From Abditibacteriaceae bacterium (GTDB lineage: Bacteria > Armatimonadota > Abditibacteriia > Abditibacteriales > Abditibacteriaceae): DNA of 28,072 bases. Location of the stretch: the NCBI GenBank assembly GCA_031372065.1, contig JANMKN010000254.1:1-28072 (forward strand), written 5' to 3'. Shown piece by piece: positions 1-22,033 of this stretch. The notes below the pieces were generated by a model. The model searched no databases. It saw nothing but the letters and a program-made list of their open reading frames with translations, and had not been told where the DNA came from. Numbering within the stretch: the stretch's first letter is position 1; every line of letters begins with the position of its first letter. The translations under genes were made by a program, and so were the position numbers.

Positions 1-360
1 ATCTTCTTTTTGCTCGTCTTTTTTATGATGACCAGCTTGGCGATGGTGCAACTCGATGGCAAACGCGTCCAGTTGCCCGAAAGCGGCACCGCGACGCTGA
101 ATCCGCAAGAAAAAGTGGTGGTTTCCATCACCAAAGAAGGCGGCGTTTATGTCGGTCAGGACGCCACTCCCGATGCGCAAATTTTGCCGTTGTTGGCGGC
201 GCGTGTGCAAAAGAATGCCGAAGTCACGGTGATTATCAACTGCGACAAAGGTCAGCGCATTGAACGCTTTCAGAAAGTATTCGATTTAATCAAGCAATCC
301 AACGCGCGCAACGTGATGATCGCCACCTCGCCCAAAAGCGCGGCTGTGGCGGCAGAATGA
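1..360 (+). CDS. exbD: ExbD/TolR family biopolymer transport protein (5' end lies outside the window)
   Basis: Frame is open from base 1 (IFFLLVFFMMTS, the ExbD TM helix). It continues with V.LP, VVVSITKEG and VIINCDK...KVFDLIKQ, typical of the ExbD periplasmic domain. Confidence 0.9.
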   Translation: MFFLLVFFMMTSLAMVQLDGKRVQLPESGTATLNPQEKVVVSITKEGGVYVGQDATPDAQILPLLAARVQKNAEVTVIINCDKGQRIERFQKVFDLIKQSNARNVMIATSPKSAAVAAE

Positions 361-477
361 ATTAACCACAGAGAACGCGGAGAGCGCAGAGAAAGGAGAA
401 TATGTCGGTAAAAGTCATCTTCTCTTTCTTGATTTCTCAGTAATTCCTCTGTGGTCTCCGTGGTCTCTGTGGTTAAT
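361..477. repeat. Intergenic long inverted repeat built from 9-mers (ACCACAGAG-type element)
   Basis: Ends ATTAACCACAGAGA (361-374) and TCTCTGTGGTTAAT (464-477) are perfect inverted repeats. Each arm has three imperfect 9-mers (ACCACAGAG/AACGCGGAG/AGCGCAGAG vs CTCTGTGGT/CTCCGTGGT/CTCTGTGGT). Confidence 0.85.
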
Positions 478-484
478 AAATCAA

Positions 485-970
485 ATGAAAATAACGCAAG
501 CTCCCATTAAGAAGGCACGCATTGAAATCATTCCGATGATTGATGTGATCTTCTTTTTGCTGGTCTTTTTCATGGTGTCCTCGCTTTCGATGGTGCGCAT
601 GAAAGGCGTCACGATGGCGTTGCCGCGTCAGGGCAATGGCGGCGAAAAAGGCGGGCAGGGCAATGCGGCTGGCCCGTCGAAATTAGTCGTCACGGTCAAC
701 CCGCAAGGCGATTATTTCATCGGACGCCGCAAAGTGAGCCGCGCAGAATTCAAAAACCAAATGGGCACAGCATTAGCGCGCACGCCGGATGCCATTGTCA
801 TTCTCAACGTCGCCAAAACGCAAAGCACGCAAAACCTGATTGACGTGATTGATTCGGTGAATACCACGCCGTCGCCTTCGGGCAAACCGCTGCAATTGCT
901 GATTGCCACCGAGCCGGTGGACGCCGAAGGCAATGCCCTGCCGCCCAATAAGCCGCAAGGCGCCCGCTAA
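485..970 (+). CDS. exbD: ExbD/TolR family biopolymer transport protein (second copy)
   Basis: KKARIEIIPMIDVIFFLLVFFMV carries the conserved TM Asp, followed by an ExbD periplasmic domain. Confidence 0.93.
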   Translation: MKITQAPIKKARIEIIPMIDVIFFLLVFFMVSSLSMVRMKGVTMALPRQGNGGEKGGQGNAAGPSKLVVTVNPQGDYFIGRRKVSRAEFKNQMGTALARTPDAIVILNVAKTQSTQNLIDVIDSVNTTPSPSGKPLQLLIATEPVDAEGNALPPNKPQGAR

Positions 971-971
971 A

Positions 972-1067
972 AGCTGTGAGCTGTGAGCTGTGAGCTGTGA
1001 GCTGTGAGCTGTGAGCTGTGAGCTGTGAGCTGTGAGCTAAAAGCTAAAAGCTAAAAGCTAAAAGCTA
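972..1067. repeat. Heptamer tandem repeat (AGCTGTG)x9 + (AGCTAAA)x4 + AGCTA
   Basis: Counted directly. It fills the spacer between the exbD stop and the GGAG ribosome-binding site (1072-1075) of the next gene. Confidence 0.97.
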
Positions 1068-1080
1068 TTTTGGAGTTCTT

Positions 1081-4000
1081 ATGTTTCGTGATCGCCTGCT
1101 GATTTTTTCGTTTTTCATTTCGCTGCTTATCAATACCTTCGCGGTGTGCGTAATCGGCGGTGTGACAGGGCGCGTGCCGCATTTTGGCCCGGAGCCAGCA
1201 AAGAAAAACGTGCTGCGTCCGGTGCGCATTGGCTCATATAAACCGCCCAAAGCGCCGCAAGTGCGTCCGACTCCGCCAACACCGAGCGCGCAAAACCGCT
1301 CTGCGGCCCGTAAAAACACCGCGCAAGCCAAAAATGCGCCGCGTTTAGCGAAAAATAAGGCTCCTCTGCCGCAAATCAAAGCGCAAAAAGCCGGTTTAAC
1401 TGCGAAGCAATTAGAACTGCTCCGCGCCGCGATGAATGCCAAAGCCGCGCAGGAGCGGGCGAAACAACCGCAAAGCAACGACAAAAATTCCTCTGGCAAA
1501 ATGGCGAAAGCCGACGGCGCTTCCGGTCAGGGCAAAGGCGGCGACAACAAAAACGGTCAGGGCAAAAACGCGGGCAATAAAGACAAACCTCGCATGGCAA
1601 AGGCCGATTTTGGCCTCAAAGACAAGCCCGCCAAAACACTACAGGCTAAAGCCACTCCTAAGCCCGATAACGCCGCCGAAGGCAAAGAAGACAAGGAAGA
1701 CGACACCGACGCCAAAGACGAAGACAATGTGAAAGACGACGCCAACGCCAAGGATGCCAAAGACGAAGCGGCGGCCAAGCCAGAAAATAAAAAACCGGCG
1801 CCCAAAGACGAAAAACAACAGCCGAAAAAAAGCGGCGAAAAATCGGACGCAAAAACCGAGATGAAATCGGGCAAGTTCACTCCGACCAAATTCGTTGGCG
1901 TTTGGGAACTCGCGCCCGACCAGAAAATCGTCTTGCCCAAAGAACTCAGCGCCATTAAATTCCCCGAAGACTTGCCGATTATGCCCGGCGTCAAGCCGCT
2001 GACGCCCGAACAAATCGAAGAATTGCGCAAGCTATTGCACGAACAGAATTTGAAACAATGGAAAGGCCTTACTAAAGAGCAACTGAAAAAGATGCTCGCC
2101 GCGCGCAAAGGTGCCGAGCGCAAGGACAGCGCCAAGCGCAAAGGCGGCACGCGCGGAATGCCGACAAAAATCGCCAAAGCCACGCCCAAACCGATTCCAC
2201 CACCCAAAAAAGAGGCGCCCAAACGCGCCCCACGCGAAGCCAAACTCAGCGACGAAGAGCAAGCCGCTATGCCGCAAGGTCTAACTTCGCCGTTTCGCTA
2301 CAAGCCGTGGACGCCCGCCTTTCAAAAATACGCTGCTTTAATCAAAGAACGCGAAGCCAAAAAATTAGCAGGCGCGCCCGACGAAACAGAAAAAACACCC
2401 GTCACGCCCAAAAACACGCCACCAACCACACCGCCGACAGCGCCAAAAAATCCGCGCCTCGCCTCCACCCAAGGCACGCCGCCGATTCCCGTTCCGCCGC
2501 CGAACGCACCCGAAAAAAACGTTCTCAATGGCGAAACCCCGCTGGTGCCGAATCCTCCAGTCACGCCGAATGCGGTAACGCCAAATGCGGTAACGCCGAA
2601 TGCGGGAAATACCGGAGCTAATGCTCCCGCTAACAACGGCGAAAAACCAAACGAAATTCTCGGCGCGAATAATCAAGAAAACGGCGCCAATAACGGCGCT
2701 GCCGGTGCCAACGCCGCCAATGGAAATACGGGAAATAATAATCCAAACGCGGGCGCCAACGCCGGAGGAAGTGCCGGAGGAAACGTGGGCGCTAATGCCG
2801 GTGGTAACAATGCGGCAAGCGGCGCCAACGCGACAAACAGCAATCCGGCAGGCGGCAATCCGGCAGGTGGCAACGCGGGAAATAATGGTGGCAACAACGG
2901 CAACAATCCCAACATTTTAGGCGCTGGTGGCGAAGGCGGACAAAACACCGGCACTGGCACTCCTGCCAACGCAGGCACGCCCGCCAATAATGGAAACGGC
3001 GGACAACCGGCGGGAGGCAACAACGCTGGCAATGCCGGAACCGGAAATGCGGGCAATGCCGGTGGCAACAACGCAGGCGGAAACGCCGGAGCCAACGCTG
3101 GGGCGAATGCTGGAAATAACGGCGGCAATTTATTAGGCGCCGGAGCCAATGCTGGCGGAAATGCTGGCAACAACGGAAATGCTGGCAACAATCCCAATAA
3201 TCAGGGCGTTTTGGGCGCTGGACAAGGCAACGCGGGAACTCCTGCACCGGCCAATGGCGCCAATGCTGGTCAACCCGCAGGCGGCAACGCCGGAGCTAAT
3301 GCAGGCGCGAACAACGCGGGCAACAATCAAAATAACGGCGGCAACCTTTTGGGTGCCGGTCAAAATAACGCGGGCGGAAATCCCCCCGCTAATGCTGGTA
3401 ACGCGGGCAACAATGCAGGTTTGTTGGGTGCCGGAGCCAATAACGCGGGCGGCAACGCAGGAACTAACACTGGTGCCAATGCCGGAGACGGTAATGCAGG
3501 TGGCAATGCGGGAAATGCAGGCAATAACGGTAATGCGGGTCTGTTAGGCGCAGGTGCCGGAAACGCGGGCGCTAATGCGAGCGGCGGAAACGCTGGTAAT
3601 AATGGCAATGCGGGATTATTAGGGGCCGGTAATGGCGGAGGCAATGCCGGGTCTGGAAATGCTGGCGGCGGAAACGCTGGCAACGGCGGCGCGGGAGGCG
3701 GCAGCGCTGGTGGTAGTGGCGGTGCGGCAGGAGGGGCGGCTGGTGGCGCCGGTCTGCTTGGTGCAGGCGGTGGCGCTGCGGGAAATGGCGGCGCAGCAGG
3801 CGGCGCCGGTGGCGGCGGAGGTAATGCTGGTGCTGGAGGTTCTGGAAGCAGTCAGGGCAATCCCGGTGGCGGTGCGGGCGGCGGCGGTGGCCTTAATGTT
3901 ATCGGCGCCGAAGGCAATGGCAAAGCCGAAGTCAGTGGCGAAACCAATAACGAAGGCCCAACCGATAGCGGCGATGGCAGCGGGGCAGGCGGCGATTTTG

Positions 4001-5613
4001 AAATTGGCCCGTTCAACGCGCTGGAAACTGACATGGAAGGCCTCGGTTTAGAGCAAGACATCAGCGGCGCTTATGATGCGTCGCTGTATGCCAACAGCAA
4101 TTTCACCGATACCGGTTTCACTCCGGCACAAGGCACCGCACCCGATCCGCCTGAGCATAATTCCGAATCAAAAGCCGGTCTTGCTGGCGCTTTAGTGCTG
4201 CCGCCGATGCCGCCCGTGGGCACCGCCAAAGGCCGCAATCGCGAATTACGCTTCCCCAAACCCAATACGCGCGCGGCGCTATCACCCCCAATGCCCAAAC
4301 CTGTGCCCCCACGCGCTACCGGCAGTTTGGCCCAGCGTCCGGCACCTAAGAAAACGCCGCCGCGTCGCATTGCCAAAATGCTACTACCGCCGCGTCAGGC
4401 GCCGACTGGCGAAACCGTGCCGCCGGGCCTTTCGGTTGGTTCCTATAGCCAGCAAGGCAGCATTCCCTTCGCGGCGCCGCGTTCGCGCTTGCCACTGGGC
4501 ACACCAGTGCCCGATCTCAGCACGATGCGCTCGCAAAACAAAGATGCGCGTCCGGCTCCTAATGCCGCACCACAACAGACCGCAGCGAATCCCAATCGTC
4601 AAACTCGTCCCGGTGACAACAAGAAAACGTCCGGTGCCGGACGCGACAATTTGCGCGTGCAAAATGGAAAACCAATGCCCGGCAAGCCAACGGCGGGCAA
4701 GAATGACGGCAAAGTGGCATCGTCCAAAAATGGCAAGCCCGCTGGCGGCAAAACGTCCGAAAAAGGCGCGCAATCCCGTTTGATGCAAGGTGCCCCCGGA
4801 CAAAATGGCAAACCGGCCAGTGGTCAGCCGCTCGGCCCGCAACAAGGGCAACCGGCCAAGCCAACGCCCGGCGTGCCGCAAAAAGCCACAGAGAAAGCCT
4901 CTGCCGAGCGCATGGCACAATTGGAGAAATCAACGGCAAAGTCCACACAAAATTCGCAGCTTTTAACGATGCTGGCGCGCCAGATTTTGGCGCAGCAAAT
5001 GGTCAATCAAAAAGTGCCCGGCAACGCCGCCAAAACGCGTCGTTATAACAACAGCAACGGCGTCAAAGACGGCTCGAAATCGCCGCTGCCGCCCACGCCT
5101 TTGCCCGATAGCGATGCTGAAATTGGCGATGGTTCGGGCCTTAAAGGCGAATATTATTTGGGTCGCAACTTCGATCAATACGTTTTCACGCGCGCCGACC
5201 CGAATATCGAATTTTTCTGGGGCGCCGACGCCTCACCGAGTCCGCGTTTGCCGGTTGGCGCCGACTGGACGGTGCGTTGGACGGGCAAAATCGAAGCGAA
5301 GTATTCCGAGAATTACACCTTCTACGCTGCCGCCGACGATGGTGTGCGCGTGTGGGTAGATCACAAACTCATCATTGACAACTGGTCGTTGCATCCGATG
5401 TTGCAATATTCGGGGCAAATCAAGCTCGAAGCGGGCAAACAGTATTCAATTCGCGTGGACTTTTTCGAAGGCGCTGGCCCGCCCGCTGCGGTTTGGCTTT
5501 ACTGGGAAAGCGCCAGCCAAAAGAAAGAATTTGTGCCGCAAGAACAGTTTTTCTACCCGCTCGCGGGCGATGATGCCGAGTTAGATAAAGACGAATTGCC
5601 GGGCAATTCCTAA
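1081..5613 (+). CDS. Giant TonB-like membrane-anchored protein: N-terminal TM helix, Pro/Lys-rich and acidic linkers, Asn/Gly/Ala low-complexity region, C-terminal PA14 domain
   Basis: GGAG RBS upstream. TM helix LLIFSFFISLLINTFAVCVIG has SxxxN (S14/N18) and is followed by a Pro-rich stretch. The C-terminus GLKGEYY...TRADPNIEFFWG...VRWTGKI...YTFYAAADDGVRVWVD...LEAGKQYSIRVDFFE...LYWES is a PA14 domain. It sits directly after the exbD pair. Confidence 0.85.
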   Translation: MFRDRLLIFSFFISLLINTFAVCVIGGVTGRVPHFGPEPAKKNVLRPVRIGSYKPPKAPQVRPTPPTPSAQNRSAARKNTAQAKNAPRLAKNKAPLPQIKAQKAGLTAKQLELLRAAMNAKAAQERAKQPQSNDKNSSGKMAKADGASGQGKGGDNKNGQGKNAGNKDKPRMAKADFGLKDKPAKTLQAKATPKPDNAAEGKEDKEDDTDAKDEDNVKDDANAKDAKDEAAAKPENKKPAPKDEKQQPKKSGEKSDAKTEMKSGKFTPTKFVGVWELAPDQKIVLPKELSAIKFPEDLPIMPGVKPLTPEQIEELRKLLHEQNLKQWKGLTKEQLKKMLAARKGAERKDSAKRKGGTRGMPTKIAKATPKPIPPPKKEAPKRAPREAKLSDEEQAAMPQGLTSPFRYKPWTPAFQKYAALIKEREAKKLAGAPDETEKTPVTPKNTPPTTPPTAPKNPRLASTQGTPPIPVPPPNAPEKNVLNGETPLVPNPPVTPNAVTPNAVTPNAGNTGANAPANNGEKPNEILGANNQENGANNGAAGANAANGNTGNNNPNAGANAGGSAGGNVGANAGGNNAASGANATNSNPAGGNPAGGNAGNNGGNNGNNPNILGAGGEGGQNTGTGTPANAGTPANNGNGGQPAGGNNAGNAGTGNAGNAGGNNAGGNAGANAGANAGNNGGNLLGAGANAGGNAGNNGNAGNNPNNQGVLGAGQGNAGTPAPANGANAGQPAGGNAGANAGANNAGNNQNNGGNLLGAGQNNAGGNPPANAGNAGNNAGLLGAGANNAGGNAGTNTGANAGDGNAGGNAGNAGNNGNAGLLGAGAGNAGANASGGNAGNNGNAGLLGAGNGGGNAGSGNAGGGNAGNGGAGGGSAGGSGGAAGGAAGGAGLLGAGGGAAGNGGAAGGAGGGGGNAGAGGSGSSQGNPGGGAGGGGGLNVIGAEGNGKAEVSGETNNEGPTDSGDGSGAGGDFEIGPFNALETDMEGLGLEQDISGAYDASLYANSNFTDTGFTPAQGTAPDPPEHNSESKAGLAGALVLPPMPPVGTAKGRNRELRFPKPNTRAALSPPMPKPVPPRATGSLAQRPAPKKTPPRRIAKMLLPPRQAPTGETVPPGLSVGSYSQQGSIPFAAPRSRLPLGTPVPDLSTMRSQNKDARPAPNAAPQQTAANPNRQTRPGDNKKTSGAGRDNLRVQNGKPMPGKPTAGKNDGKVASSKNGKPAGGKTSEKGAQSRLMQGAPGQNGKPASGQPLGPQQGQPAKPTPGVPQKATEKASAERMAQLEKSTAKSTQNSQLLTMLARQILAQQMVNQKVPGNAAKTRRYNNSNGVKDGSKSPLPPTPLPDSDAEIGDGSGLKGEYYLGRNFDQYVFTRADPNIEFFWGADASPSPRLPVGADWTVRWTGKIEAKYSENYTFYAAADDGVRVWVDHKLIIDNWSLHPMLQYSGQIKLEAGKQYSIRVDFFEGAGPPAAVWLYWESASQKKEFVPQEQFFYPLAGDDAELDKDELPGNS

Positions 5614-6899
5614 TGCGCTCCAAAATTTTCCTGTCACTTCTTTTAAGCGCCGCGCCAGCATGGGCGGCGCCAACCAAAACGCTGCCACTGGAACCGATTC
5701 CGGCAGTGCCGGAATCGGGCGTGCCACTGCAAAATGCGCCCGGCGACGGCGGAAATGGCGATGCGCCCGCTAATAAGTTGGATAGTGATCTCGTCGCGGC
5801 TATTGTTGATGGCGATGTGAAAAAAGCGGCAGATTTGCTCGCCAAAGGCGCCAATGTCAACGCGACGGATCGCTATAAATCCACGCCGCTGATGCAAGCT
5901 GTGGCGGTGGGCACCGAAGCGATGATCGGGCTTTTGCTCGACAAAGGCGCCGATGCCAATGCCCAAGATAAAGATGGCTTCACGCCGCTTTTAATTGCTG
6001 CGTATTCGGGTCGCACTTCCGTCGCTTCGATGTTGCTTAATAAAGGCACCGACCTGAAAACGACGGACGCCAAAGGTCACACCGCTTTGATGGGCGCGGC
6101 TTATTCGGGCAAAAGTGACATCGTGAAAATGCTTGTAGACAAAGGCGCCGATTTTCGCGCCCGCGATGCCGATGGCTTTACTGCGCTGATGGTCGCTGCT
6201 GGTTCGGGCAATGTCCAAAATGTGCAGCTTTTGATGTCAAAAGGCGCTTCGGTCAACACAACGACGGCCAGTGGTTTTACGCCGCTAATGCAAGCCTGCG
6301 GCGCCGGACGAGTGCGCGTGGTGAAGCTGCTTTTGCAGAACAATGCTTACGTCGAAACGCAAACTAAGCAAGGTTTTACGCCGCTTTTGATTGCGTGTTA
6401 CGCCGGTCAGCCGCGTGTTGTGGAGTTGCTTTTAGATCGCGGCGCGAATATCGAAGCGTTGGATGTCATCGGTCACACGCCGCTGATGGGCGCGGCTTAT
6501 TCGGGCAACGCCGACATTGCGCGTTTGCTTTTGCTGCGCGGCGCCAACATGGAAGTTCAAACGAAAAGCGGCCTCAACGCGCTGATGCAAGCGGCTTATT
6601 CGGGCAAGGCCGATGTGGTGAAATTGCTCATCGAACGCGGTGCCAATGTCGAAGCCAAAACCGCCAAAGGTTTGACGGCTTTGATGCAAGCCGCAGGTGT
6701 CGGCAATATGGAAATCGTGCGCTTGATTTTAGAAGCGGGCGCCGACATCAATGTGCTGGATATTTCCAAGCAAAATGCGCTCTCGTGGGCTAAAAAACGC
6801 CGTCAGGGTGACGTGATAGAGCTGTTGATTCAAGCCGGCTCCGAAGACTTACCCGACAAGCCCGAACCCGCCAAAGAGCCGACATCGAAAGGCACGTAA
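5613..6899 (+). CDS. Exported ankyrin-repeat protein (about 11 repeats)
   Basis: Signal peptide MRSKIFLSLLLSAAPAWA, then 33-aa repeats of G.T(P/A)L..AA..G....V..LL..GA. Its start overlaps the upstream stop (TAATG). Confidence 0.95.
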   Translation: MRSKIFLSLLLSAAPAWAAPTKTLPLEPIPAVPESGVPLQNAPGDGGNGDAPANKLDSDLVAAIVDGDVKKAADLLAKGANVNATDRYKSTPLMQAVAVGTEAMIGLLLDKGADANAQDKDGFTPLLIAAYSGRTSVASMLLNKGTDLKTTDAKGHTALMGAAYSGKSDIVKMLVDKGADFRARDADGFTALMVAAGSGNVQNVQLLMSKGASVNTTTASGFTPLMQACGAGRVRVVKLLLQNNAYVETQTKQGFTPLLIACYAGQPRVVELLLDRGANIEALDVIGHTPLMGAAYSGNADIARLLLLRGANMEVQTKSGLNALMQAAYSGKADVVKLLIERGANVEAKTAKGLTALMQAAGVGNMEIVRLILEAGADINVLDISKQNALSWAKKRRQGDVIELLIQAGSEDLPDKPEPAKEPTSKGT

Positions 6900-6901
6900 T
6901 C

Positions 6902-6955
6902 GTAGAGGCACGCTACGGCGTGCCCTTTTCAGGACACGCCATAGCGTGCCCCTAC
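6902..6955. repeat. GTAG-type REP doublet (REPIN-like)
   Basis: GTAG-AGGCACGC-TACG-GCGTGCCC is followed by the inverted copy GGACACGC-CATA-GCGTGCCC-CTAC. Confidence 0.8.
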
Positions 6956-6960
6956 TACTT

Positions 6961-9897
6961 ATGCGACAAATTTTGTTTTTTGCCATCATTTTTTGTTTTC
7001 TCGCGCCGCTACGCGCTGACGAGCCTTTTACGCTCAACAACGAGCAAATTATGGCTGCTTTGCGCGCCGATAAGCCCCTCGAAGAGGGGATGTGGGTTGA
7101 GACGCTTGATCTCACCAATATGTCGTCGGGTTATAGGCAGCCGATGGCGCGCAAAAGCATTGACGAAAACGCTTTGCGACTGGATGGCGTGCTTTATCCG
7201 CACGGCATCGGCACGCACGCCAACAGCGTGCTGAACGTTGACCTCAAAGGCGCGGTTAAGCGCTTTTTGTGCGTGGTTGGTCTGGACGACGAAGGCAAAG
7301 GCAACGCGGCTAAAGTGGTTTTCAAGGTCGTGGCCGATGGCAAAACCTTGTTCGATAGCGGCACCAAAATCAGCGGAGAAAAACCTGACATAATCAACGT
7401 AGATGTGCGCGGCGCCAAGCGCTTGACGCTTAGTGTCACCGCGCCTAATAATGAAATCACATGGACTCACGCCGATTGGGCGGGCGCGATGTTCCTCTTG
7501 GACGATGATTCGACGGCGCGGCCCGAATCGGTTTCGTTAGGCGCTGTAACTTCGATGCGCGCCTTTCCGCCGCCTTTCAAACCGGGCGAGGCGCCGGGCG
7601 TTTATGGCCCGCAAATCTTCGGTTGCACGCCGAAAAAACCATTTTTTCAGCGCATTTGGGCCACCGGCAAAGAGCCTTTCAAATTTACCGCTGATCGCTT
7701 GCCCAAAGGCTTGCAACTCGACACCGAAGGCGGCCTGATTACCGGCCAAATCGAAGCGTCGGGCAACTACGATTTTTCGATTGGCGTGAGCAATGCCAAA
7801 GGCAAAACCGTGGTGCCGATGAGCATCGTGTGCGGCGATCACAAACTCGCGCAAACGCCGCCGATGGGCTGGAATGCGTGGAACGTTTTTGGCGAAACAG
7901 TTAGCGTTGCCAAAGTCAAGGAACAGGCCGATTTGCTCCTCGAAACTGGCCTTGCGCAGATGGGTTACAACTACGTCATCATTGACGATACATGGCAAGC
8001 GCGCCGCGAAGCCGACGGCAGCATTTTCTCCAATAAACGCTTTGGCGACATCACCGAACTCGCCGATTACTTGCACGGGCGCGGCCTGAAATTGGGCCTT
8101 TATTCCACGCCGAATTTGGAAACCTGTTCGGGTTACGCGGGCAGTTACGGCCACGAAGAACAAGACGCTAAAGCCTACGCCGAGTGGGGCGTGGATTACT
8201 TGAAATACGATTGGTGTCAGGTCGGTAGCAACAAAGAAAACACCACGCCCGAAGTGATGCAAGAAGCCTACGGGCGGATGCGCAAAGCCTTGGATAAAGC
8301 ACCACGCGACATCGTGTGGGCGCTGACGCCTTACGGTTTTGGCGAAGCCTACAAATGGGCGGGCGATTTGGGTGCAAATTCGTGGTTCACCGATGTCGGC
8401 ATTCAAGATACCTTTGAAAGCATTCGCAAAAATGGCGAGCGTATGGGCGATTTAACGAAATATTCGGCGCCGGGCCGCTGGAACGATCCGGGCTGGCTCA
8501 TGGTCGGCAAATTTTCGCCGAACAAGCCGCGTTTTTCCAATCTGCGCGCTGCGGAATTGCAACTGCAAATGACGCAGTGGTGCATCGCCAATGCGCCGCT
8601 GATTTTGTCGTGCGATTTGCGCCAACTCGACCCAAATAAGCTGTATCCGGTCAACACTTCCTTGCTGACAAATCCCGAAGTTTTGGCTGTCAATCAAGAT
8701 ATTTTGGGCGTTCCGGCCAAGCGCACAGGCTGGGAAATTGAAACGTGGGTCAAGCCTTTGATTGATGGCACTGTAGCCGTGGCGCTGCTCAACAAAAGCG
8801 ACAGCGCGCGCGAAGTGAGCGCGCGTTGGTGGGACATCGGCAAAGTCGGCAAGCAAATGGTGCGCGATTTATGGCTGCGGCAGGATTTGGGCGAATTCGA
8901 TCAAGAATTCAAAGCCATCGTGCCGCGTCACGGCGCGATGCTTTTGAAAATCGGCCAGCCTTTGGCGCCCAGCAATCAATGGCGCGGCCTCAATCGCACC
9001 GTGTATTTGCGACCTGTGGGGCGCTGGGGCGAAGGCTTGCGTTGGGCGTGGAGTCGCAACGGCGTTGATTGGTCTATCAACAACAAAACGCGCAATAAAC
9101 CCGAAGTCGGCGGCAAGCAAATGCGTGATAACAGCATCGAACGCGGCTCCGACGGCGTTTATCATATGCTGTGGACAACCGGCGACAAAGATTCCGGTTT
9201 CGGCTACGCCAACTCGCGCGATTTGCTGAGTTGGGGCGAGCAAAAAATGGTTCCCGTTGATAGCGGCGTGCTGGCCGGACGCCTGCGCGAAGCCCGGCAT
9301 CCACAACTTTTCTGGGACAAAAAAGGCGCGCAATGGATTATTCTTTTCGCCGCCGAAGTGACCGATGAAAAACCGCGCGGCTGGCGTATTTACGCGGTGA
9401 CGACCAAAGATTTTAAAACCGTCAGCGACCCGAAATTGCTTCTTGATATGCCTTATCGCGCCACATATCCGAACCTGATTGAAAGCAAAGGCCGCTATTA
9501 TTTGCTTTACCGCGACGATGACAGGCGCACGGCCAAAATCAGTGCTTCCACTGCGCCACTTGGCCCCTTTGATGTATCGCCCGATTTGGAATCGCTGTTG
9601 CCGCCAGCCGAAGCTGTTGACCCGAAAAAGAAAAAGCCCGCCCCACCGCACGATCCCGGCGCGCCACTGTCGTGGGGAATGGATGTTGAGAATATTAAAC
9701 TCATGCCAGCGGGCGACGATTGGTTGGTGAGTTTCTTCCGCAGTGGCAAAGACCAAACGCATCTTATGTTCAAGTCACGCGATTTGAAAACATGGAGCGA
9801 AGTCAAGCCCGAAATTGTGCTGCCCAGAGACTTTCACGCCGGAGAACGCATCGTTACCACCGAAACCACACTGATGGAAATTTTGCGGGGGAACTGA
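6961..9897 (+). CDS. Exported multidomain glycoside-hydrolase-like protein: NPCBM/NEW2 + Ig-like + GH27 (alpha-galactosidase fold) + GH43-like beta-propeller
   Basis: Signal peptide MRQILFFAIIFCFLAPLRA (ATG 6961; the track's GTG start lies inside the REP). NPCBM: GIGTHANS...VGLDD...HADW. Ig-like: LPKGLQLD...GLITG. GH27: LAQTPPMGWNAWN, IDDTW, WGVDYLKYDWC. Propeller: MRDNSI...GVYHMLWTTG...GYANSRDL. Confidence 0.88.
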   Translation: MRQILFFAIIFCFLAPLRADEPFTLNNEQIMAALRADKPLEEGMWVETLDLTNMSSGYRQPMARKSIDENALRLDGVLYPHGIGTHANSVLNVDLKGAVKRFLCVVGLDDEGKGNAAKVVFKVVADGKTLFDSGTKISGEKPDIINVDVRGAKRLTLSVTAPNNEITWTHADWAGAMFLLDDDSTARPESVSLGAVTSMRAFPPPFKPGEAPGVYGPQIFGCTPKKPFFQRIWATGKEPFKFTADRLPKGLQLDTEGGLITGQIEASGNYDFSIGVSNAKGKTVVPMSIVCGDHKLAQTPPMGWNAWNVFGETVSVAKVKEQADLLLETGLAQMGYNYVIIDDTWQARREADGSIFSNKRFGDITELADYLHGRGLKLGLYSTPNLETCSGYAGSYGHEEQDAKAYAEWGVDYLKYDWCQVGSNKENTTPEVMQEAYGRMRKALDKAPRDIVWALTPYGFGEAYKWAGDLGANSWFTDVGIQDTFESIRKNGERMGDLTKYSAPGRWNDPGWLMVGKFSPNKPRFSNLRAAELQLQMTQWCIANAPLILSCDLRQLDPNKLYPVNTSLLTNPEVLAVNQDILGVPAKRTGWEIETWVKPLIDGTVAVALLNKSDSAREVSARWWDIGKVGKQMVRDLWLRQDLGEFDQEFKAIVPRHGAMLLKIGQPLAPSNQWRGLNRTVYLRPVGRWGEGLRWAWSRNGVDWSINNKTRNKPEVGGKQMRDNSIERGSDGVYHMLWTTGDKDSGFGYANSRDLLSWGEQKMVPVDSGVLAGRLREARHPQLFWDKKGAQWIILFAAEVTDEKPRGWRIYAVTTKDFKTVSDPKLLLDMPYRATYPNLIESKGRYYLLYRDDDRRTAKISASTAPLGPFDVSPDLESLLPPAEAVDPKKKKPAPPHDPGAPLSWGMDVENIKLMPAGDDWLVSFFRSGKDQTHLMFKSRDLKTWSEVKPEIVLPRDFHAGERIVTTETTLMEILRGN

Positions 9898-10074: not shown

Positions 10075-10254
10075 ATGAACACCCTACATTTCGGATTCGA
10101 GAATATTTTGGCCCAATCAATGTTTATCAACGTGTTTGGCTTGCTCATGTGCGCTGGTAGCCTTTACCTGTGGTTACATCGGCGTCCCAAACTCTCGGCC
10201 CGGAAAGTGCGCGTTTCGCGCGATGTCACGCCTTATCGGCGTTCCTCGCGTTAA
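10075..10254 (+). CDS. 59-aa small ORF (leader peptide or small membrane peptide)
   Basis: MNTLHFGFENILAQSMFINVFGLLMCAGSLYLWLHRRPKLSARKVRVSRDVTPYRRSSR lies between a promoter and a terminator, with GGAG upstream at a somewhat long spacing. It has a hydrophobic core and an Arg-rich tail. Confidence 0.5.
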   Translation: MNTLHFGFENILAQSMFINVFGLLMCAGSLYLWLHRRPKLSARKVRVSRDVTPYRRSSR

Positions 10255-10338: not shown

Positions 10339-10410
10339 GGGGGCGTGGTGTAATGGTAGTCACGCGAGATTGTGGCCCTCGAAGATCGGGTTCAAATCCC
10401 GGCGCTCCCT
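10339..10410 (+). tRNA. tRNA-His(GTG), atypical: no encoded G-1, U73, no CCA
   Basis: Acceptor GGGGGCG/CGCTCCC, D-arm GTG-TAATGGTAGT-CAC, anticodon arm CGAGA-TTGTGGC-CCTCG, T-arm TCGGG-TTCAAAT-CCCGG. Confidence 0.88.
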
Positions 10411-10414
10411 TGTC

Positions 10415-10475
10415 GAATGCAGAATGCGGAATGGCGAATGCGGAGTGAGTATTCCGCACTTCACATTCCGCATTC
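10415..10475. repeat. Heptamer-based hairpin spacer between tRNAs
   Basis: GAATGCGGAATG (10422-10433) pairs perfectly with CATTCCGCATTC (10464-10475). The arms consist of GAATGCG-like heptamers. Confidence 0.8.
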
Positions 10476-10479
10476 AAAA

Positions 10480-10550
10480 AGGGGCGTCGTTTAATGGCAG
10501 GACAGCAGCCTCCAAATCTGTTTATGAGGGTTCGATTCCTTCCGCCCCTG
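10480..10550 (+). tRNA. tRNA-Trp(CCA), 3' CCA not encoded
   Basis: Acceptor AGGGGCG/CGCCCCT with G73, anticodon arm GCAGC-CTCCAAA-TCTGT (C31-U39 mismatch), T-arm GAGGG-TTCGATT-CCTTC. Confidence 0.92.
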
Positions 10551-10554
10551 TTGA

Positions 10555-10620
10555 GTAGTTAAGAGTTTGGAGTTAGGAATGCGGTCAATTCCAAATTCTT
10601 AACTCAAAACTCCCAACTGC
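10555..10620. repeat. Heptamer-based hairpin spacer between tRNAs
   Basis: AGTTAAGAGTTTGGAGTT (10557-10574) pairs, with G-U pairs, with AATTCCAAATTCTTAACT (10587-10604). Confidence 0.75.
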
Positions 10621-10627
10621 TGTAAAA

Positions 10628-10701
10628 GCCTGTGTAGCTCAGTGTGGTAGATCAGTCGGCTCGTATCCGACCGGACGCTGGTTCAACCCAAGCCACGGAT
10701 G
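10628..10701 (+). tRNA. Degenerate tRNA-Thr(CGT)-like gene, possibly a pseudo-tRNA
   Basis: TAGCTCAG..TGGTAGA D-loop signature, perfect anticodon arm GTCGG-CTCGTAT-CCGAC and T-loop TTCAACC. There are mismatches in the acceptor (GCCTGTG/CACGGAT), D and T stems. Confidence 0.72.
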
Positions 10702-10712
10702 CCTCCAAAATC

Positions 10713-12218: not shown

Positions 12219-13181
12219 CTAACTTTCAATATCATCAGGGCGCCAGCGACGCAGCATCCACGACCATTGATCGGGATGTGCGCGCACGGCGGTTTCGATG
12301 GAGGCAATGACTTGTTTAGTGCCTTCAATAGTTGCGGCTTCGCGCTCATCACGATTGGCGGCGTGAACTTCAAACGCCGGGGAAAAGCGGCCTTCAATGC
12401 GTCCATCGCTGCGCCACGGTTCGCGGCGCACGCCGTAAACCGGCACAATCGGCGCGCCGCTCATCATGGCTATGCGCGCCGGGGCGGTTTCAAAGCGCGT
12501 CAGGTGGCCGAACAAAGGCAGCAAAGCGCCTTCGGCTCCGGCGTGGCGGTCGGGCAGAATATACAACGCCGAGCCAGCGCGCAAGGCTTTCAAAGAAGGA
12601 CGCGCCGCTGCGTGCTTGGAAATCAATTGCATCCCCACGGCGCGGCGCACCGAAGTCATGTGTTCTTGGGCGCTGACATTCGACAACGGGCGCATGATAG
12701 CAGACAAAGGAACTTCCTGAGACAAACGCGCCGCCAAAACTTCCCAGTTGCCCAGATGCACCGTAAGCAAAATTGCGCCGTTGCCTTTTTGCAAAGCCGC
12801 TTGCAAATGTTCCATGCCTTGCAGACTGACATAATCGCGGATTTCCTGCGGCGAGGCGGTGCGTTGATGAAAAAACTCGCAGGTCGTCATGCCCCAGTTT
12901 TGCGCCGAACGGCGCGCGATATATGTGGCACGCACGCGCGAAACGCCCAACGCTTTGACGACGTTATCAATCGCCAACTCGCGGCGGCGGCGCCCGATTT
13001 TGAAAAAAGCCAGCCCGATTAAGGCGCCCATTCGACGGCAGCTTTGCCACGAGGCGCTTTCAAGGCGATGTCCCAGCGCACTCATCAAGCGCTTTTCCAA
13101 GGCGGCGCGGCTGCTGCTGGTTTCTTTCTGGCGCGGCGAAATCAAAGCGTCAGCGGTGGGTTGCTCAGGTTGTTCCGTCAT
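12219..13181 (-). CDS. Lipid A lauroyl/myristoyl acyltransferase family (LpxL/HtrB-like LPLAT)
   Basis: GxEHLxxALxxGxGAILLTVHLGNWE (HxxxxE), ILPDRH, LPLFG, QWSWMLRRW. Confidence 0.9.
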   Translation of the reverse strand: MTEQPEQPTADALISPRQKETSSSRAALEKRLMSALGHRLESASWQSCRRMGALIGLAFFKIGRRRRELAIDNVVKALGVSRVRATYIARRSAQNWGMTTCEFFHQRTASPQEIRDYVSLQGMEHLQAALQKGNGAILLTVHLGNWEVLAARLSQEVPLSAIMRPLSNVSAQEHMTSVRRAVGMQLISKHAAARPSLKALRAGSALYILPDRHAGAEGALLPLFGHLTRFETAPARIAMMSGAPIVPVYGVRREPWRSDGRIEGRFSPAFEVHAANRDEREAATIEGTKQVIASIETAVRAHPDQWSWMLRRWRPDDIES

Positions 13182-14116
13182 AAAGTTTCTTCGGCCCTAT
13201 CTTCCGCGCGCCAGCGGCGATGCATCCACAGCCATTGATCGGGATACTCTCGCACGATGGCTTCTGTGGCGTCGTTCATAAAACGTGTGCCCGCCAGCAC
13301 CGCGTCATCGCGCGTTGCATAGTGTTGCTGCTGCAAATCCAAAGCTGGCCCCGACTGAATGACGACACGCCCGTTGGCAATCCACGGCTCGCGTCGCACT
13401 GCAAAAATCGGCACAATTGGCGCTTGTGCGGCCAAAGCCAAACGCGCGGGCGAGGTGAAAACGCGTGTCTGATGGCCGAACATTGGCAGAAGCATTCCGC
13501 TCGGCCCGGCGTGCTGATCGGCGAAAATCGCCAGACCTTCGTTAGCGCGCAAGGCGCGCAGCGAAACGCGCGCCGATTCTTCTTTGAGAATCATTTTGAT
13601 ATTGACCGCCGCGCGCACTTTTTCGGCGTGACTTTTCAACGCCTGATTCGATGTAAGGCGCACCACGACCGACATCGGAAACTCTTGCGCCATGCGCGCG
13701 CCCATCACTTCCCACGCGCCAAAATGCGCCGTCGGCAGCATGGCGCCGTGACCTTGCGCCAAAGCGTTATGAATATGTTCCAGCCCCTGCCACGCGCAGT
13801 AAGCGCGGATTTCAGCAGGCGAGGCCGCCTGCAAATGCATAAATTCACAAAACGACATCCCAAAATTCTGCACCGACCGCCGCGCGATTTGCTGGCGCCG
13901 CCTTTGGCTAAGATGCGGCAAGGCGAGGCTCAAATTTTCTAAAGCGATAGTGCGGCGGCGTTTTAATCCATAGAAAAACGCCAATCCCATCAACGAACCA
14001 ACGCGCCGACAGGTAATCCACGGCGCCGAGGACAAGGCATCGCCCATTCGTTGAATGAGGCGTTTTTCTAAAGCGCGGCGTTGTGTTTTCATCATGATCT
14101 TTGAGGCCGCTATCAC
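13178..14116 (-). CDS. Lipid A lauroyl/myristoyl acyltransferase family (LpxL/HtrB-like LPLAT), paralogue
   Basis: GLEHIHNALAQGHGAMLPTAHFGAWE, IFADQHAG, QWLWMHRRW. ATGA overlap with the downstream paralogue. The true start may be an ATG near 14096. Confidence 0.9.
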   Translation of the reverse strand: MIAASKIMMKTQRRALEKRLIQRMGDALSSAPWITCRRVGSLMGLAFFYGLKRRRTIALENLSLALPHLSQRRRQQIARRSVQNFGMSFCEFMHLQAASPAEIRAYCAWQGLEHIHNALAQGHGAMLPTAHFGAWEVMGARMAQEFPMSVVVRLTSNQALKSHAEKVRAAVNIKMILKEESARVSLRALRANEGLAIFADQHAGPSGMLLPMFGHQTRVFTSPARLALAAQAPIVPIFAVRREPWIANGRVVIQSGPALDLQQQHYATRDDAVLAGTRFMNDATEAIVREYPDQWLWMHRRWRAEDRAEETL

Positions 14117-14370: not shown

Positions 14371-14598
14371 TAAGAATCAGTTTGAAAAGTCTTATTCGAG
14401 GCGAAAAAGAGGCATTTTGTCATCCTGAGTCATGTTACGCAGTGCGCTTATGGTAGGCACTGGAAAGAGCGACGAAGTCGCTCTTTCCTTTAACACAAAT
14501 CAACCGCGTAAGATGTCATCCTGAGCTTGCGAAGGATGACATCTCTTCTGTTTTTTGCTCAATTCTCATACTTTTGAGACTTTTCAAACTGATTCTTA
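14371..14598. mobile_element. MITE-like non-autonomous element (228 bp) with nested palindromic elements
   Basis: Perfect 22-bp terminal inverted repeats TAAGAATCAGTTTGAAAAGTCT (14371-14392) and AGACTTTTCAAACTGATTCTTA (14577-14598). No transposase. Internal hairpins at 14462-14488 and 14511-14544. Confidence 0.82.
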
Positions 14599-17256
14599 CA
14601 AGGCCGCTGCGGTGGCTTGGGCGCTGAGAACGCGGTCAATGCGCATTTGCGATTGATCGAGATGCAAGCGCGTGTAAGCATCCAGTTCGCTTTTGCGCGC
14701 TTCGGCGATTTTTGCTTTCAAGCGGCGCAAAGTGTCCCACGCCAGCATTCTCGTGTCGGAATCGCCGCGCTGCGAGGCCAGATTTATCAGCAAATCAACG
14801 TGCGAACGCTGCAAATCGCGATGCAGCGGGCTGATGCTGATTTCGGTTTTCTTGTCCAACTCCGACCAAATGGTGCCTTGCACGCTGCGGAATAGTTCCA
14901 GCAACGTCAGGCCTTCTTTGAACGGCATTTTGAATTCATTTTCTTCCATACGTTCAAGGCGCGAAGGGTCGAAAACGGTTGCTAAAACGCTGCTTTGCAA
15001 GTTGGAAATTTGGGAGCGAACCGGAAACGCCATGCGAGCGCGCATATCGCCAAATTCATACGGATCGGGCGCCATTTTTTGATAATAATCCGCCGGAATG
15101 TTGAAAGCATCGGCGGCGAAAACGTATTTGTTAATCAAATTCAAGGCGCGCCGTTGTTCGCTGGCCGCCACAGGTTTCAACTGCGGTTTTTCACCGATTT
15201 CGCCGCGCGTGTTGCGCACTGCGTTAAGGCCGCCAATGTAGCGTGCCGCCTGCGCCGCGCGTCCGCCGTTGCCGCCGATTAAACGGTAAAGACTGTTGGT
15301 GAACTCGCTGTAATCCTCGCCCTTTTTTGGCAAGCGCTCGCCCAAAGTGGAAATTAATTCCTGGTTGAGTTGGAACGACTTTTCCATGTAATCCAGCGGG
15401 TCGCGTCCCAAATCGTAGCGCACGATGCTGGGGTCGTAATTGTCGGCCAATTCGTCGCTTTGATAGGCCAAACCCGGCTCGTTGCAACGCGCGGCGATGC
15501 TTTTAAGGGCCGGTTTTTCGGCTTCGGGCGTTTTTTCGCCGGTTGACTTGTAACCGTATTCAATCGCCCACATATCGTAGGGGCCGATTGTCGTCGAAAA
15601 CAAATCCACGCCTTGTTTTTTCAAGCCGTAAAGGTTGAAGCCGGTGTAATCCATCACCGAAGCGGTCAGACCAGTGCCGGCGATGTTTTTCTCGTCGCCC
15701 AATTGGTTGGCATCGTAAAGCGTGCTGGCGATAAAGTTGTGGCGCAAACCCAAACAATGGCCGAATTCATGGGCGATGAGAACGCGCAATTGATTGTTGG
15801 CGAACTCAGTTTCGTCCACGCTGACGCGGCCCGCTGTGCCGATTTGCGCGGCTTGCAGCATTTCCAAAGCCTGCCAGCCCGTCCATGCTTGTTCCATCAA
15901 ACCTTCGCCGTAATCGCAGGAAGTGACGCTGCTATTTGTCGCACTCGCTTTGGGATTGATGGCCGGATTGACGGTTTCTTTGGCCTGAGTGCGTGCAAAA
16001 CGCATCCAGTTGGAGTTGCAGTTGATGTTGGCGCTGATAATCTCGCCAGTCAGCGGGTTTTCACGCATCAAAGCCACAGCCATCGCGCTGTAGGAAGACG
16101 GCGGCGTGGTCACCCAGCGCAGCACGTTGTAACGCAAATCGGCGTGATCCCAATCGGCATCGTCCGGCATTTGCTTAACGACAACGGCATCCTTGAAACC
16201 AATGCGCTCGAAGGCTTTGTTCCACAACAACATCCCCTCGGCAGCGGCGCCGCGATATTCTTTGGGCCATGCTTTGTCAATCCAGAAGACAATCGGCTTT
16301 TTGGGCAGCGAAAGAGCCGCTGAAGGCTCGGTTTTTTCCAGTTTCCAGCGATTAATATAAACCACGCGCGGGTCGTTTTTGGAATCGTCATCGAAAGTGT
16401 CGAAACCGGCGCGGCCCGCCGATAAAGAACCGTTCACGAAAAAGCCGACACGCGCATCGGCCAGACGCGGCACATAACCATTTTCCGGCACCGCAAAGAG
16501 GTTTAAATCCACTTTCAGCGGCGCGCTTTTCGAGCCGCCCGTTTTGGAACTGGTGTTGTAATTGACCTGAATCACCAAGTTTTCCGGCAGGTTTTTGATG
16601 GATTCGATGTAGCTTTTGCCGCCATCAATGCTGAAACCAAGATCATTGGTATCGAACAGTTTTCCGGCGCCCGGCATATTGCTGCGAAAGAAATCGCTGA
16701 CATCAACCAGAAACGATTTGCGCTCTTCCTGTTTGGCGGCGATAGCGAAAACTTCAACTGTGGTATCGGGAAATTCGCGCGCCACAGCCGCTGCTTGCGC
16801 CGAATCTTTTTTGACGCGATAAGTCAAATTCGGCGAAACGAGCAGCAAGCGCTCATCGGGCGTTTTGTCCCATTTTAAAACCACATCTTCCAATGGCGAA
16901 CCAGCATTGACGCGCCCATTGCCGCTGCTGGCAGTCATCTGCAAAATATACAGCTTGCCGAACTGATCTTCGGTCAGTTCGAGCATCAGTTTTTGCTTGT
17001 TGCCGTCCAATTTGCGATAAAGCGTGAAAACGCCGGGCAATTTTTCCCAATCTTTGACGGTTTCGTCAATGTTTTTGGGTTTATCCTTCTTTTCGTCTTT
17101 CTTATCGTCCTTTTTGTCGTCTTTGGGCGCCTCTTTGGTGTCTTTGGCATCCTTAGGCGCTTCTTTGGCCGGTTCTTTCGGCGGATCTTTGGGGGCGTCT
17201 TCGGCGCAAAGCGGCGCCACAACCAGCAACAAGGCCAGCAGATAAGTCAACTTCAT
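14596..17256 (-). CDS. Exported zinc-dependent metalloprotease (EcxA-like, DUF5118/DUF5117/DUF4953 architecture)
   Basis: Signal peptide, PRLADARVGFF, YINRWKLE, KPIVFWID, NPLTGEI, metzincin motif HEFGHCLGLRHNF, Met-turn SVMDY, GPYDMWAIEYGY. Confidence 0.93.
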   Translation of the reverse strand: MKLTYLLALLLVVAPLCAEDAPKDPPKEPAKEAPKDAKDTKEAPKDDKKDDKKDEKKDKPKNIDETVKDWEKLPGVFTLYRKLDGNKQKLMLELTEDQFGKLYILQMTASSGNGRVNAGSPLEDVVLKWDKTPDERLLLVSPNLTYRVKKDSAQAAAVAREFPDTTVEVFAIAAKQEERKSFLVDVSDFFRSNMPGAGKLFDTNDLGFSIDGGKSYIESIKNLPENLVIQVNYNTSSKTGGSKSAPLKVDLNLFAVPENGYVPRLADARVGFFVNGSLSAGRAGFDTFDDDSKNDPRVVYINRWKLEKTEPSAALSLPKKPIVFWIDKAWPKEYRGAAAEGMLLWNKAFERIGFKDAVVVKQMPDDADWDHADLRYNVLRWVTTPPSSYSAMAVALMRENPLTGEIISANINCNSNWMRFARTQAKETVNPAINPKASATNSSVTSCDYGEGLMEQAWTGWQALEMLQAAQIGTAGRVSVDETEFANNQLRVLIAHEFGHCLGLRHNFIASTLYDANQLGDEKNIAGTGLTASVMDYTGFNLYGLKKQGVDLFSTTIGPYDMWAIEYGYKSTGEKTPEAEKPALKSIAARCNEPGLAYQSDELADNYDPSIVRYDLGRDPLDYMEKSFQLNQELISTLGERLPKKGEDYSEFTNSLYRLIGGNGGRAAQAARYIGGLNAVRNTRGEIGEKPQLKPVAASEQRRALNLINKYVFAADAFNIPADYYQKMAPDPYEFGDMRARMAFPVRSQISNLQSSVLATVFDPSRLERMEENEFKMPFKEGLTLLELFRSVQGTIWSELDKKTEISISPLHRDLQRSHVDLLINLASQRGDSDTRMLAWDTLRRLKAKIAEARKSELDAYTRLHLDQSQMRIDRVLSAQATAAAL

Positions 17257-18869: not shown

Positions 18870-19531
18870 TGTTTCACCGCAAGGTTGTCCAAATGGTTTT
18901 TAATGTTGGCTTCAATAGTATTTTGCGCGCGTGGCGTGCCTTTGCATTTCAAAGCCCATGACCTGCCGGGATGAATCACGTCCCAATCTGACCGCGCTTG
19001 TTCATACCGCCCCTTGCCCGGATCGTGATTGCCAAAGCCATCCAACGCTGAGTTCCATAAAGGTCTGTTCAATTTTATTAATGCAGCCTCAATCGTTCCA
19101 ATCATGTCAGAACCGGCGCCCTCGAAAATGACGAACCGGCACATGAAATCTTCAATAAAGAGGTTAGAGGTGCCATCAATGCTCCGACTGTGTTCGCGCA
19201 GGCGATTGCACAATTCGCGTGATTGATCCAGAGGATTGTCCGATGAGCGACTTTGCCGCCAGCCTCGCGGCACAGCTTTGCCAACATAAATCGCAGCAGT
19301 GTAGGATAACCGATTCAACTCGGCATATTTTGCGTAAAGCGGATTCTTGCCGATGTAATAGAGCGCATATACGCCTGTTCCCAAAAAGTTTTCCGGCGGC
19401 GGAAGCGTGTGAACAGGAGTTCCGTTGAAAAACCGAACTGCGTCTTTGATAAGCTCGACAAGGGCGTCGTTGCGATAAATGTGTTCGCTACGGTCAAAAG
19501 GTGTTTGTTGCATTTTTAGATAGTGCGCCAA
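18866..19531 (-). CDS. Eco29kI-family GIY-YIG type II restriction endonuclease
   Basis: GVYALYY...IYVGKA, RLREH, IEAALI, PLWN, GFGNHDPGKGR, SDWDVIHPGRSWA. ATG at 19513 is an alternative start. Confidence 0.93.
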   Translation of the reverse strand: MAHYLKMQQTPFDRSEHIYRNDALVELIKDAVRFFNGTPVHTLPPPENFLGTGVYALYYIGKNPLYAKYAELNRLSYTAAIYVGKAVPRGWRQSRSSDNPLDQSRELCNRLREHSRSIDGTSNLFIEDFMCRFVIFEGAGSDMIGTIEAALIKLNRPLWNSALDGFGNHDPGKGRYEQARSDWDVIHPGRSWALKCKGTPRAQNTIEANIKNHLDNLAVKQ

Positions 19532-21757: not shown

Positions 21758-21938
21758 ATGACAAAGTTTTCCACCGGTGTTATCGAAAACCTGGGTTTTT
21801 ACGTTTATCTTTACGCAGACCCAGCAAACAGCGAAGTTTTTTATGTGGGCAAAGGCAGAGGCAATCGCGCCTTTGCTCATTTGGACATTGAAGATGAGGA
21901 TGACGAAACCGAATCTAAAAAATCGGCACGGATTCGAG
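21758..21938 (+). pseudogene. Truncated LEM-3-like GIY-YIG nuclease (N-terminal 60 aa only)
   Basis: FSTGVIENLGFYVYLYADP..SEVFYVGKGRGNRAFAHL...KKSARIR. The rest of the ORF, to 22213, reads as antisense of other ORFs and lacks the helix carrying the catalytic Glu. Confidence 0.75.
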
Positions 21939-22033
21939 CCCACCCACACGTTACCGTCCTGCACAACGTCAACGTTACAAGTCATAGTTCTTCCTGTCAT
22001 AGTTCTTCCTCGTTCTGTTCATCACGGCTTTTA

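Follow-up and report, generated by a model that had tools for sequence, protein, structure and literature searches.

A candidate ExbB-ExbD motor cluster with a PA14-ended, TonB-like putative transducer in an Abditibacteriaceae bacterium

The window analysed here is the whole 28,072-nucleotide contig JANMKN010000254.1 (C4) of an Abditibacteriaceae bacterium, whose assembly (GCA_031372065.1, G000 below) is 94% complete. Its first 9,897 positions hold genes for two ExbD proteins, a 1510-aa putative force transducer ending in a PA14 domain, an ankyrin-repeat protein and an altered GH27 protein, which together may form part of a proton-driven machine acting on glycan. The cluster was compared across an Armatimonadota set (n = 401), in which G-numbers denote genomes, f- and g-numbers families and genera, and L-numbers extracted loci. 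These genomes are kin and not independent, and the counts below are not statistical tests.

Genes and domains of the cluster

Five open reading frames (ORFs) lie on the + strand at 1-360, 485-970, 1081-5613, 5613-6899 and 6946-9897 (ORF listing), and Pfam assigns them, in order, to ExbD, ExbD, PA14, ankyrin repeats, and an NPCBM, Ig, GH27 and C-terminal sandwich architecture. The co-directional arrangement, the repeat-filled spacers and the single TAATG overlap described in a first-pass annotation of the window are all present in the sequence. The first gene, exbD1 (1-360, +; Pfam ExbD E 4.9e-17), is cut at its 5′ end by the contig edge. Judged against congener copies, it has lost about 21 codons, among them the one for the transmembrane Asp, and the remainder shares 89-91% identity with residues 22 onward of the full-length copies in G001 and G002. 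A palindromic intergenic repeat (361-480) leads to exbD2 (485-970, +; Pfam ExbD), which has about 28% identity to exbD1, has its closest relatives in Abditibacteriaceae records and retains the transmembrane Asp (IIPMIDVIFF). A spacer of heptamers repeated in tandem, (GCTGTGA)n(GCTAAAA)n, at 971-1080 precedes the putative transducer gene (1081-5613, +), whose stop overlaps the start of the ankyrin gene (5613-6899, +; about ten repeats by Pfam) in the TAATG at 5611-5615. A palindromic spacer (6900-6960) separates the latter from the NPCBM-Ig-GH27-sandwich gene on the same strand, which more likely starts at ATG 6961 than at GTG 6946 and extends to 9897 with a non-conserved GH43-like tail. A promoter and terminator scan returned nothing informative inside the cluster.

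The first-pass annotation had placed exbB upstream, out of view, and a homologous exbB does precede the exbD pair in congeners. The own genome holds two exbB genes, one of which, an orphan, ends about 100 nt before the end of contig C311 and is followed by a palindromic repeat of the same type as that after exbD1. It shares 82-85% identity with the exbB preceding the homologous exbD pair in two congeners, and in all likelihood this C311 gene is the one missing upstream of exbD1; a direct sequence overlap between C311 and C4 was not found. The transmembrane Asp motif IIPMID is shared by exbD2 and those exbD1 homologues that are full length, and the ExbB motifs LGT.TG and AL.AT, which we take to be the pore threonines of E. 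coli ExbB, are kept, so that both hallmarks of the ExbBD/TolQR 5:2 motor are present. In the alignment register that we assume for the E. coli ExbB Trp contacting the TonB His, this position looks aliphatic in the aligned ExbBs, including that of G039, which has a canonical TonB. Among the matches listed, the nearest ExbDs outside the phylum lie in operons of the order TBDT-exbB-exbD-tonB, where TBDT stands for TonB-dependent transporter.

The claim of a TonB-type membrane anchor in the usual tonB position is supported by the gene following the exbD pair. The sole hydrophobic segment of the 1510-aa protein, near aa 7-25, is a predicted single transmembrane helix (1099-1155, +; KD19 maximum 2.5 at aa 7) containing Ser14-x3-Asn18, the counterpart of TonB Ser16/His20, and Ser-x3-Asn is found in 26 of 26 transducer homologues. 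The Ser-x3-His pair of TonB and TolA touches ExbB/TolQ (PMC12215075), and E. coli TonB with His20 exchanged for Asn retains full function (bioRxiv 2022.09.26.509584). Asn in place of His also occurs in the canonical TonB_C-containing TonB of G039. Within about residues 42-55, the proline-flanked strand PVRIGSYKPP (1219-1248, +) resembles a D-box and is the predicted ExbD-binding site. This pattern, defined post hoc from the homologues themselves with the D-box as described in PMC10907165, is matched imperfectly, in 20 of the 26 homologues.

The linker that follows is long and of low complexity, with conserved islands. It includes a partly helical block specific to the transducer family (1864-2394, +; alignment A1), a stretch of Gly/Asn/Ala-rich repeats (2641-3930, +) that contains nine LLGAG-like motifs and whose length and unit differ among homologues, and the island NS.G.K.G..PLPP.P.P just before PA14 (5050-5124, +), conserved in 15 of 17 full-length homologues. 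Two further conserved islands lie at aa 1036-1047 and 1117-1128. Full-length transducers range from 688 to 1892 aa. Among 1.84 billion protein representatives the A1 block is found in only 15 clusters, and all six full-length members end in the same PA14. The model of this block is of low confidence (pTM 0.20).

As the first-pass annotation had stated, the protein ends in a PA14 domain (5134-5541, +; aa 1352-1487, Pfam E 1.1e-23). Its Asp-Asp calcium/sugar motif at aa 1419-1420 is intact, and the pair is invariant in 18 of 18 copies. The profile check proposed for TonB_C gave no Pfam match in the 1510-aa protein up to E 0.1, leaving PA14 as the only domain. By sequence, the nearest solved structure is the PA14 dyad of RsgI3 (6qe7). 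In the PA14 domains of clostridial RsgI proteins, sugar is bound by the calcium that an Asp-cis-Asp pair holds, and with EDTA present xylan is no longer bound (PMC6852018). Those sensors, RsgI3 and RsgI4 (6qe7, 6qdi), share the transmembrane-linker-PA14 layout and the Asp-Asp calcium motif with the window protein, which differs in having no anti-sigma domain or sigma gene (sigI), a single PA14 and a predicted coupling to exbBD. An ESM Atlas search returned only generic PA14 clusters, at 0.81, and a protein search with the PA14 profile gave matches dominated by multi-PA14 proteins. The anthrax protective antigen was matched weakly, at the level of the fold family, and any link to it was dropped.

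The ankyrin protein has a signal-peptide-like N-terminus, judged by eye, and its repeat register and surface residues are kept among homologues. In the 27 family genomes searched, all eight strong matches to this ankyrin type fall in cluster-bearing genomes. NCBIfam matches to effector ankyrins were all far under the cut-off and were rejected. In G300 the ankyrin and GH27 parts are fused in one 903-aa protein, for which AlphaFold (unpaired alignment) folds both parts (pLDDT 87.5) with a pTM of 0.61, a low-confidence linker and no defined packing.

The GH27 domain retains the fold and most motifs of GH27 α-galactosidases. In the alignment with the plant enzymes 1uas and 6f4c, from which we take the register and the presumed nucleophile and acid/base roles, the own copy has the nucleophile Asp422 and Gly485 at the standard acid/base position, WRTTGD having become WFTDVG. 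The acid/base Asp is found in 0 of 18 cluster copies and in seven of seven unlinked paralogues. The Asp of WNDPD is likewise Gly in all 18 and canonical in the seven, and a 5-residue insert is present in all 18 and none of the seven. The nucleophile position holds Asp in 14 cluster copies and Glu in four, and one pocket Asp is kept throughout the 18. Fourteen cluster copies form a single cluster-specific clade (support 100/97; insertion removed from three rows), which the tree derives from NPCBM-Ig-GH27 enzymes of these sugar-degrading genomes. The genus g2 copies (L042:10958-13447, L043, L044) have Glu as nucleophile and, within the barrel, a long insertion rich in Thr, Pro, Val and Ala. Because the acid/base Asp is absent from 18 of 18 copies, the cluster GH27 is probably a conserved non-catalytic protein and not an enzyme of altered specificity. 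Of the altered GH27/GH43 glycan protein that had been proposed, the altered GH27 stands, whereas the GH43 match is an incidental tail: it lies below the cut-off (22.6 vs 32.2 bits), was seen only in G000, G002 and G005, and was rejected as a core part.

Conservation of the cluster and exchange of the tip domain

Strong matches to the A1 block were found in 15 of the 401 phylum genomes, in families f1, f13, f15 and f31, together with one weak match; by these searches the cluster is conserved and confined to the phylum. The gene order for which a synteny check had been suggested recurs, with exbB, in these four families as exbB(-exbB)-exbD-exbD-[TM..PA14]-ankyrin/GH27, where TM is the transmembrane anchor. 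A single contig carries the cluster in eight relatives of three families (G002, G005, G012, G021, G023, G218, G300 and, without GH27, G195); the linker of G002 is frameshifted within its GC-rich repeats, possibly through an assembly error. In the fourth family (G037) the cluster is split at the repeat region, and in fragmented genomes the break falls inside the repeats with both halves visible. Among the 16 genomes with this PA14, ankyrin follows directly in 14 and GH27 is found in 11; two of the five lacking a GH27 call, G001 and G003, do so at contig ends. In metagenomes, ankyrin and/or GH27 accompany 16 of 17 close loci (several of them near-duplicates), and 62 generic PA14 loci contain no exbB, exbD or ankyrin gene and one GH match. 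Genes flanking the cluster are not conserved. Of the outcomes that the first-pass annotation had named as contrary to it, the two open to checking, lost synteny and a canonical tonB upstream, were not found.

Several loci depart from the common layout. At L165:131-2449, exbB and exbD1 form one 360-aa ORF (a fusion or a frameshift) and another gene is inserted before the transducer, and at L164 exbB follows the ankyrin gene. A shorter exbD-exbD-[TM..PA14] variant without linker islands occurs in G390 and G278 (L331:7480-11089 and L332:7618-11651), with exbB seen in G278. These two genomes, the ones without adjacent ankyrin and GH27, lack both the A1 block and the pre-PA14 island. They are incomplete and belong to a single genus, and the joint absence hints that the ankyrin and GH27 proteins may bind these islands.

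The absence of a TBDT noted in the window holds across the loci examined, which also have no canonical tonB, and no TBDT lies near the cluster in the three near-complete genomes. Elsewhere, the own genome has four TBDT-like genes and a gene for a TonB_C protein, and in each of the five relatives tested both kinds of protein are likewise encoded away from the cluster, several such pairs being adjacent. In G012 a TonB_C-like match lies 7 kb downstream of the cluster, in a separate gene. In G034 and G039 the gene that follows exbB-exbD-exbD encodes a true TonB_C protein. The G039 locus (L047:9398-16799) reads TBDT-exbB-exbD-exbD followed by a 1095-aa TonB with S-x3-N and a Gly/Ser/Arg-rich repeat linker; an ordinary TonB of this phylum can therefore have a long soft linker and Asn. 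Two TBDT-barrel proteins of about 1200 aa with long N-terminal extensions in the own genome (G000:C171:11633-15277 and C159:6267-9758) may serve signalling rather than uptake.

At a second locus of the own genome (L275:2687-9675, on contig C342), TPR, exbB and exbD genes stand in this order ahead of a gene for a 738-aa protein with an S-x3-H TM helix, a linker and, again, a C-terminal PA14. In 20 exbD regions, taken from the top ExbD matches in relatives, the gene in this slot ends in PA14 in eight, vWA in eight and DUF4159 in two; of the remaining two regions, one is cut by a contig end and one is a TBDT-linked Ton-type locus. In nine further genomes exbD and the second-locus PA14 lie about 2 kb apart on the same strand. 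A quick tree places the PA14- and vWA-type ExbBs of the family as sister groups (99), apart from the ExbB clade of the window. Because relatives differ in whether PA14, vWA or DUF4159 occupies this slot, PA14 is, by this comparison of predicted proteins, one of the exchangeable tips of TonB_C-less transducers, a class put forward in 2025, with tips swapped on an orthologous motor. The window-type and second-locus PA14 groups share 26-31% identity and a single clade for both was rejected (p-AU 0.0085; quick tree, long branches), which suggests that PA14 was probably recruited twice onto motor transducers.

The 2025 proposal, a prediction only, concerns vWA-tipped TonB_C-less transducers encoded beside TPR, tolQ-like and paired tolR-like genes (PMC12204202). 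Its main text and one text supplement (text only) do not mention PA14 or ankyrin, nor does the available text of a 2026 review (PMC12905483) mention PA14 or vWA. A literature search found no paper describing this PA14-transducer system, subscription journals being mostly outside its coverage. The first-pass annotation's idea of a new machine is thus kept for the PA14-tipped version and given up for the design as a whole, which the vWA-tipped proteins anticipate. Both types have a transmembrane helix with an SHLS-like motif, a motor box, a disordered linker and a non-TonB C-terminal domain, and both are encoded beside tolQ/exbB-like, paired tolR/exbD-like and repeat-solenoid genes with no TBDT or Pal. 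The window system differs in its PA14 tip, in Asn instead of His, in an ankyrin instead of a TPR solenoid, in the added degenerate GH27 and in a linker 5-15 times longer than the approximately 100 residues described for vWA transducers.

With the Ton system (ExbB-ExbD-TonB) the cluster shares gene order, motor residues, a TonB-like S-x3-H/N anchor, an imperfectly matching D-box-like strand and the Ton-operon setting of its nearest ExbDs, and it differs in the lack of TonB_C and of a linked TBDT and in having two distinct ExbDs and sometimes two ExbBs. With Tol-Pal it shares a transducer and soluble exported partners in one cluster, whereas the TolA C-terminal domain, TolB and Pal do not occur at cluster loci. 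In the own genome TolB_N gave no match, and one OmpA-domain match lies elsewhere, in a 626-aa frame. The transducer would work like a TonB/TolA or vWA transducer and, by its C-terminal domain, belongs to neither family.

Proposed mechanism and alternative readings

Characterised TonB and TolA transducers pull protein through β-strand addition. The reading that we favour, which we rate at slightly under an even chance, is that an ExbB-ExbD1-ExbD2 motor and its PA14-tipped, TonB-like transducer put an envelope glycan of the cell itself under tension or shift its position, the ankyrin protein serving as scaffold and GH27 as a second clamp. The replacement of a transporter-pulling tip by PA14 and the loss of the acid residue from the glycosidase point to envelope glycan, and not nutrient transporters, as the likely target. 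The transducer would dock on ExbB through the Ser-x3-Asn helix and on the ExbD pair through the D-box-like strand, a step that the observed motifs make highly probable. Proton flow would then turn the motor and reel in the long linker, by analogy with Ton/Tol and in line with the wrap-and-pull model, itself called speculative in PMC12905483. PA14 would hold sugar via Ca2+ at its Asp-Asp motif, which the presence of that motif renders fairly likely. The exported ankyrin and GH27 proteins would bind the conserved linker islands, GH27 holding a galactoside-like sugar uncut; the genetic linkage and residue loss leave this clamp evenly balanced between right and wrong, and a complex prediction of PA14 with ankyrin and GH27 (score 0.01) gave no evidence for or against contact. 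The output, tentative and the least certain step, would be the organisation of envelope glycan, a Tol-like job and not the opening of a TBDT. Overall, we regard the inference as strong for motor coupling, moderate for sugar binding and for partner contacts, and weak for the cellular role.

A number of observations weigh against this reading. On its single contig G195 dispenses with the cluster GH27 and has only intact-type GH27s, and G390 and G278 have neither ankyrin nor GH27 beside the gene. The loci examined contain no conserved outer-membrane or wall-anchored partner nearby. The system is patchy, being present in 10 of the 27 genomes of its own family, and an accessory role therefore fits better than core envelope upkeep. 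Besides being imperfect, the D-box match lies about 20 residues from the transmembrane helix instead of 10-15. A mostly disordered linker, up to about 1900 aa long, is ill suited to transmit force, and a disordered replacement in E. coli abolished native function, leaving some force transduction (PMC12204202). The third calcium ligand position of PA14 is mostly Glu but Ala in genus g2, and in some cluster GH27s an Asp that stands one or two residues ahead of the standard acid/base site might still act.

The same parts could serve uptake, if the transducer worked for an unlinked TBDT or porin while PA14 and the dead GH27 captured oligosaccharides in the periplasm, or if PA14 were a protein-binding tip. 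The Ton-operon setting of the nearest outside ExbDs, the same layout with a TBDT in G039 and the origin of GH27 among NPCBM-Ig-GH27 enzymes of sugar-degrading genomes agree with this. We nevertheless consider it unlikely, given a transducer without TonB_C, the TonB_C proteins and TBDTs located elsewhere in five of five relatives with none near the cluster in the three near-complete genomes, and the lack of conserved transporter or regulator neighbours. Surface motility, adhesion or exopolysaccharide spreading of the Agl-Glt/Agl-Nfs kind, with the linker reaching an outer-membrane or surface glycan, is less probable still. The two distinct ExbDs, which presumably resemble the AglQ/AglS pair, count in its favour, and flagellin is absent from all 27 family genomes; this absence is seen with and without the system and does not discriminate. 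In Myxococcus, Agl-Nfs moves glycan strands with a proton motor of the ExbBD/TolQR class (PMC3858216), and vWA tips have been suggested to serve gliding (PMC12204202). However, a multi-protein Nfs surface complex handles the glycan there, whereas here a lectin-type domain sits on the transducer itself; no nfs- or glt-like genes or conserved outer-membrane subunits were seen at cluster loci, and there is no sign of how PA14 would cross the outer membrane.

An RsgI-like sensor of glycan or tension, in which PA14 binding is reported by gating of the ExbBD channel or by cleavage, would accord with the RsgI3 sensor as closest solved PA14 and with a soft, very long linker that is better suited to a tether than to a piston. 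With only about six residues ahead of the transmembrane helix, the protein lacks a cytoplasmic output domain, and the loci examined share no sigma factor or regulator gene, making this improbable. Most improbable is that the transducer is motor-linked and the ankyrin and GH27 genes merely travel with it: G195 has no cluster GH27, neither gene adjoins the transducer gene in G390, G278 and L167, and in L158 4.6 kb of other genes lie between them, but the linkage is kept in four families despite order swaps, and the gene fusion, the translational coupling, the restriction of the ankyrin type to cluster-bearing genomes among the 27 searched and the cluster-specific GH27 clade all argue against it.

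If the envelope-glycan reading is true, a lectin-tipped transducer would extend the output of Ton/Tol motors to carbohydrate. The exchange of PA14, vWA and DUF4159 at one orthologous locus points to a modular tip, and PA14, unlike vWA, offers a direct biochemical handle on TonB_C-less transducers (glycan arrays, EDTA, DD mutants). The cluster also adds a putative conserved bacterial GH27 pseudoenzyme and hints at how a Terrabacteria diderm without detected TolB may energise its envelope. In its fullest form, the proposal would join two recruitments of a Ca2+-lectin tip, 5:2 motors that pull polysaccharide, an ankyrin-linked dead glycosidase clamp and a winch driven by proton-motive force that replaces Tol-Pal or drives surface movement in a flagella-less lineage; this combination is rather unlikely to hold as a whole.

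Other features of the window

Downstream of the cluster, a group of tRNA-His, tRNA-Trp and tRNA-Thr genes (10339-10703) is preceded by a 59-codon ORF (10075-10254) without a Pfam match, by a promoter-like site and by a strong hairpin resembling a terminator. Two tandem lipid A acyltransferase-family genes (12219-14116), together with three Omp85 matches, fit a diderm envelope. A Met-zincin DUF4953/DUF5117 protein is encoded at 14596-17256 and has a homologue just upstream of the cluster only in G300. Genes for a C5 DNA methylase and an Eco29kI-family restriction endonuclease (17676-19531) lie in a lower-GC stretch, and a short LEM-3/GIY-YIG-like ORF at 21758-22213 is apparently degenerate.

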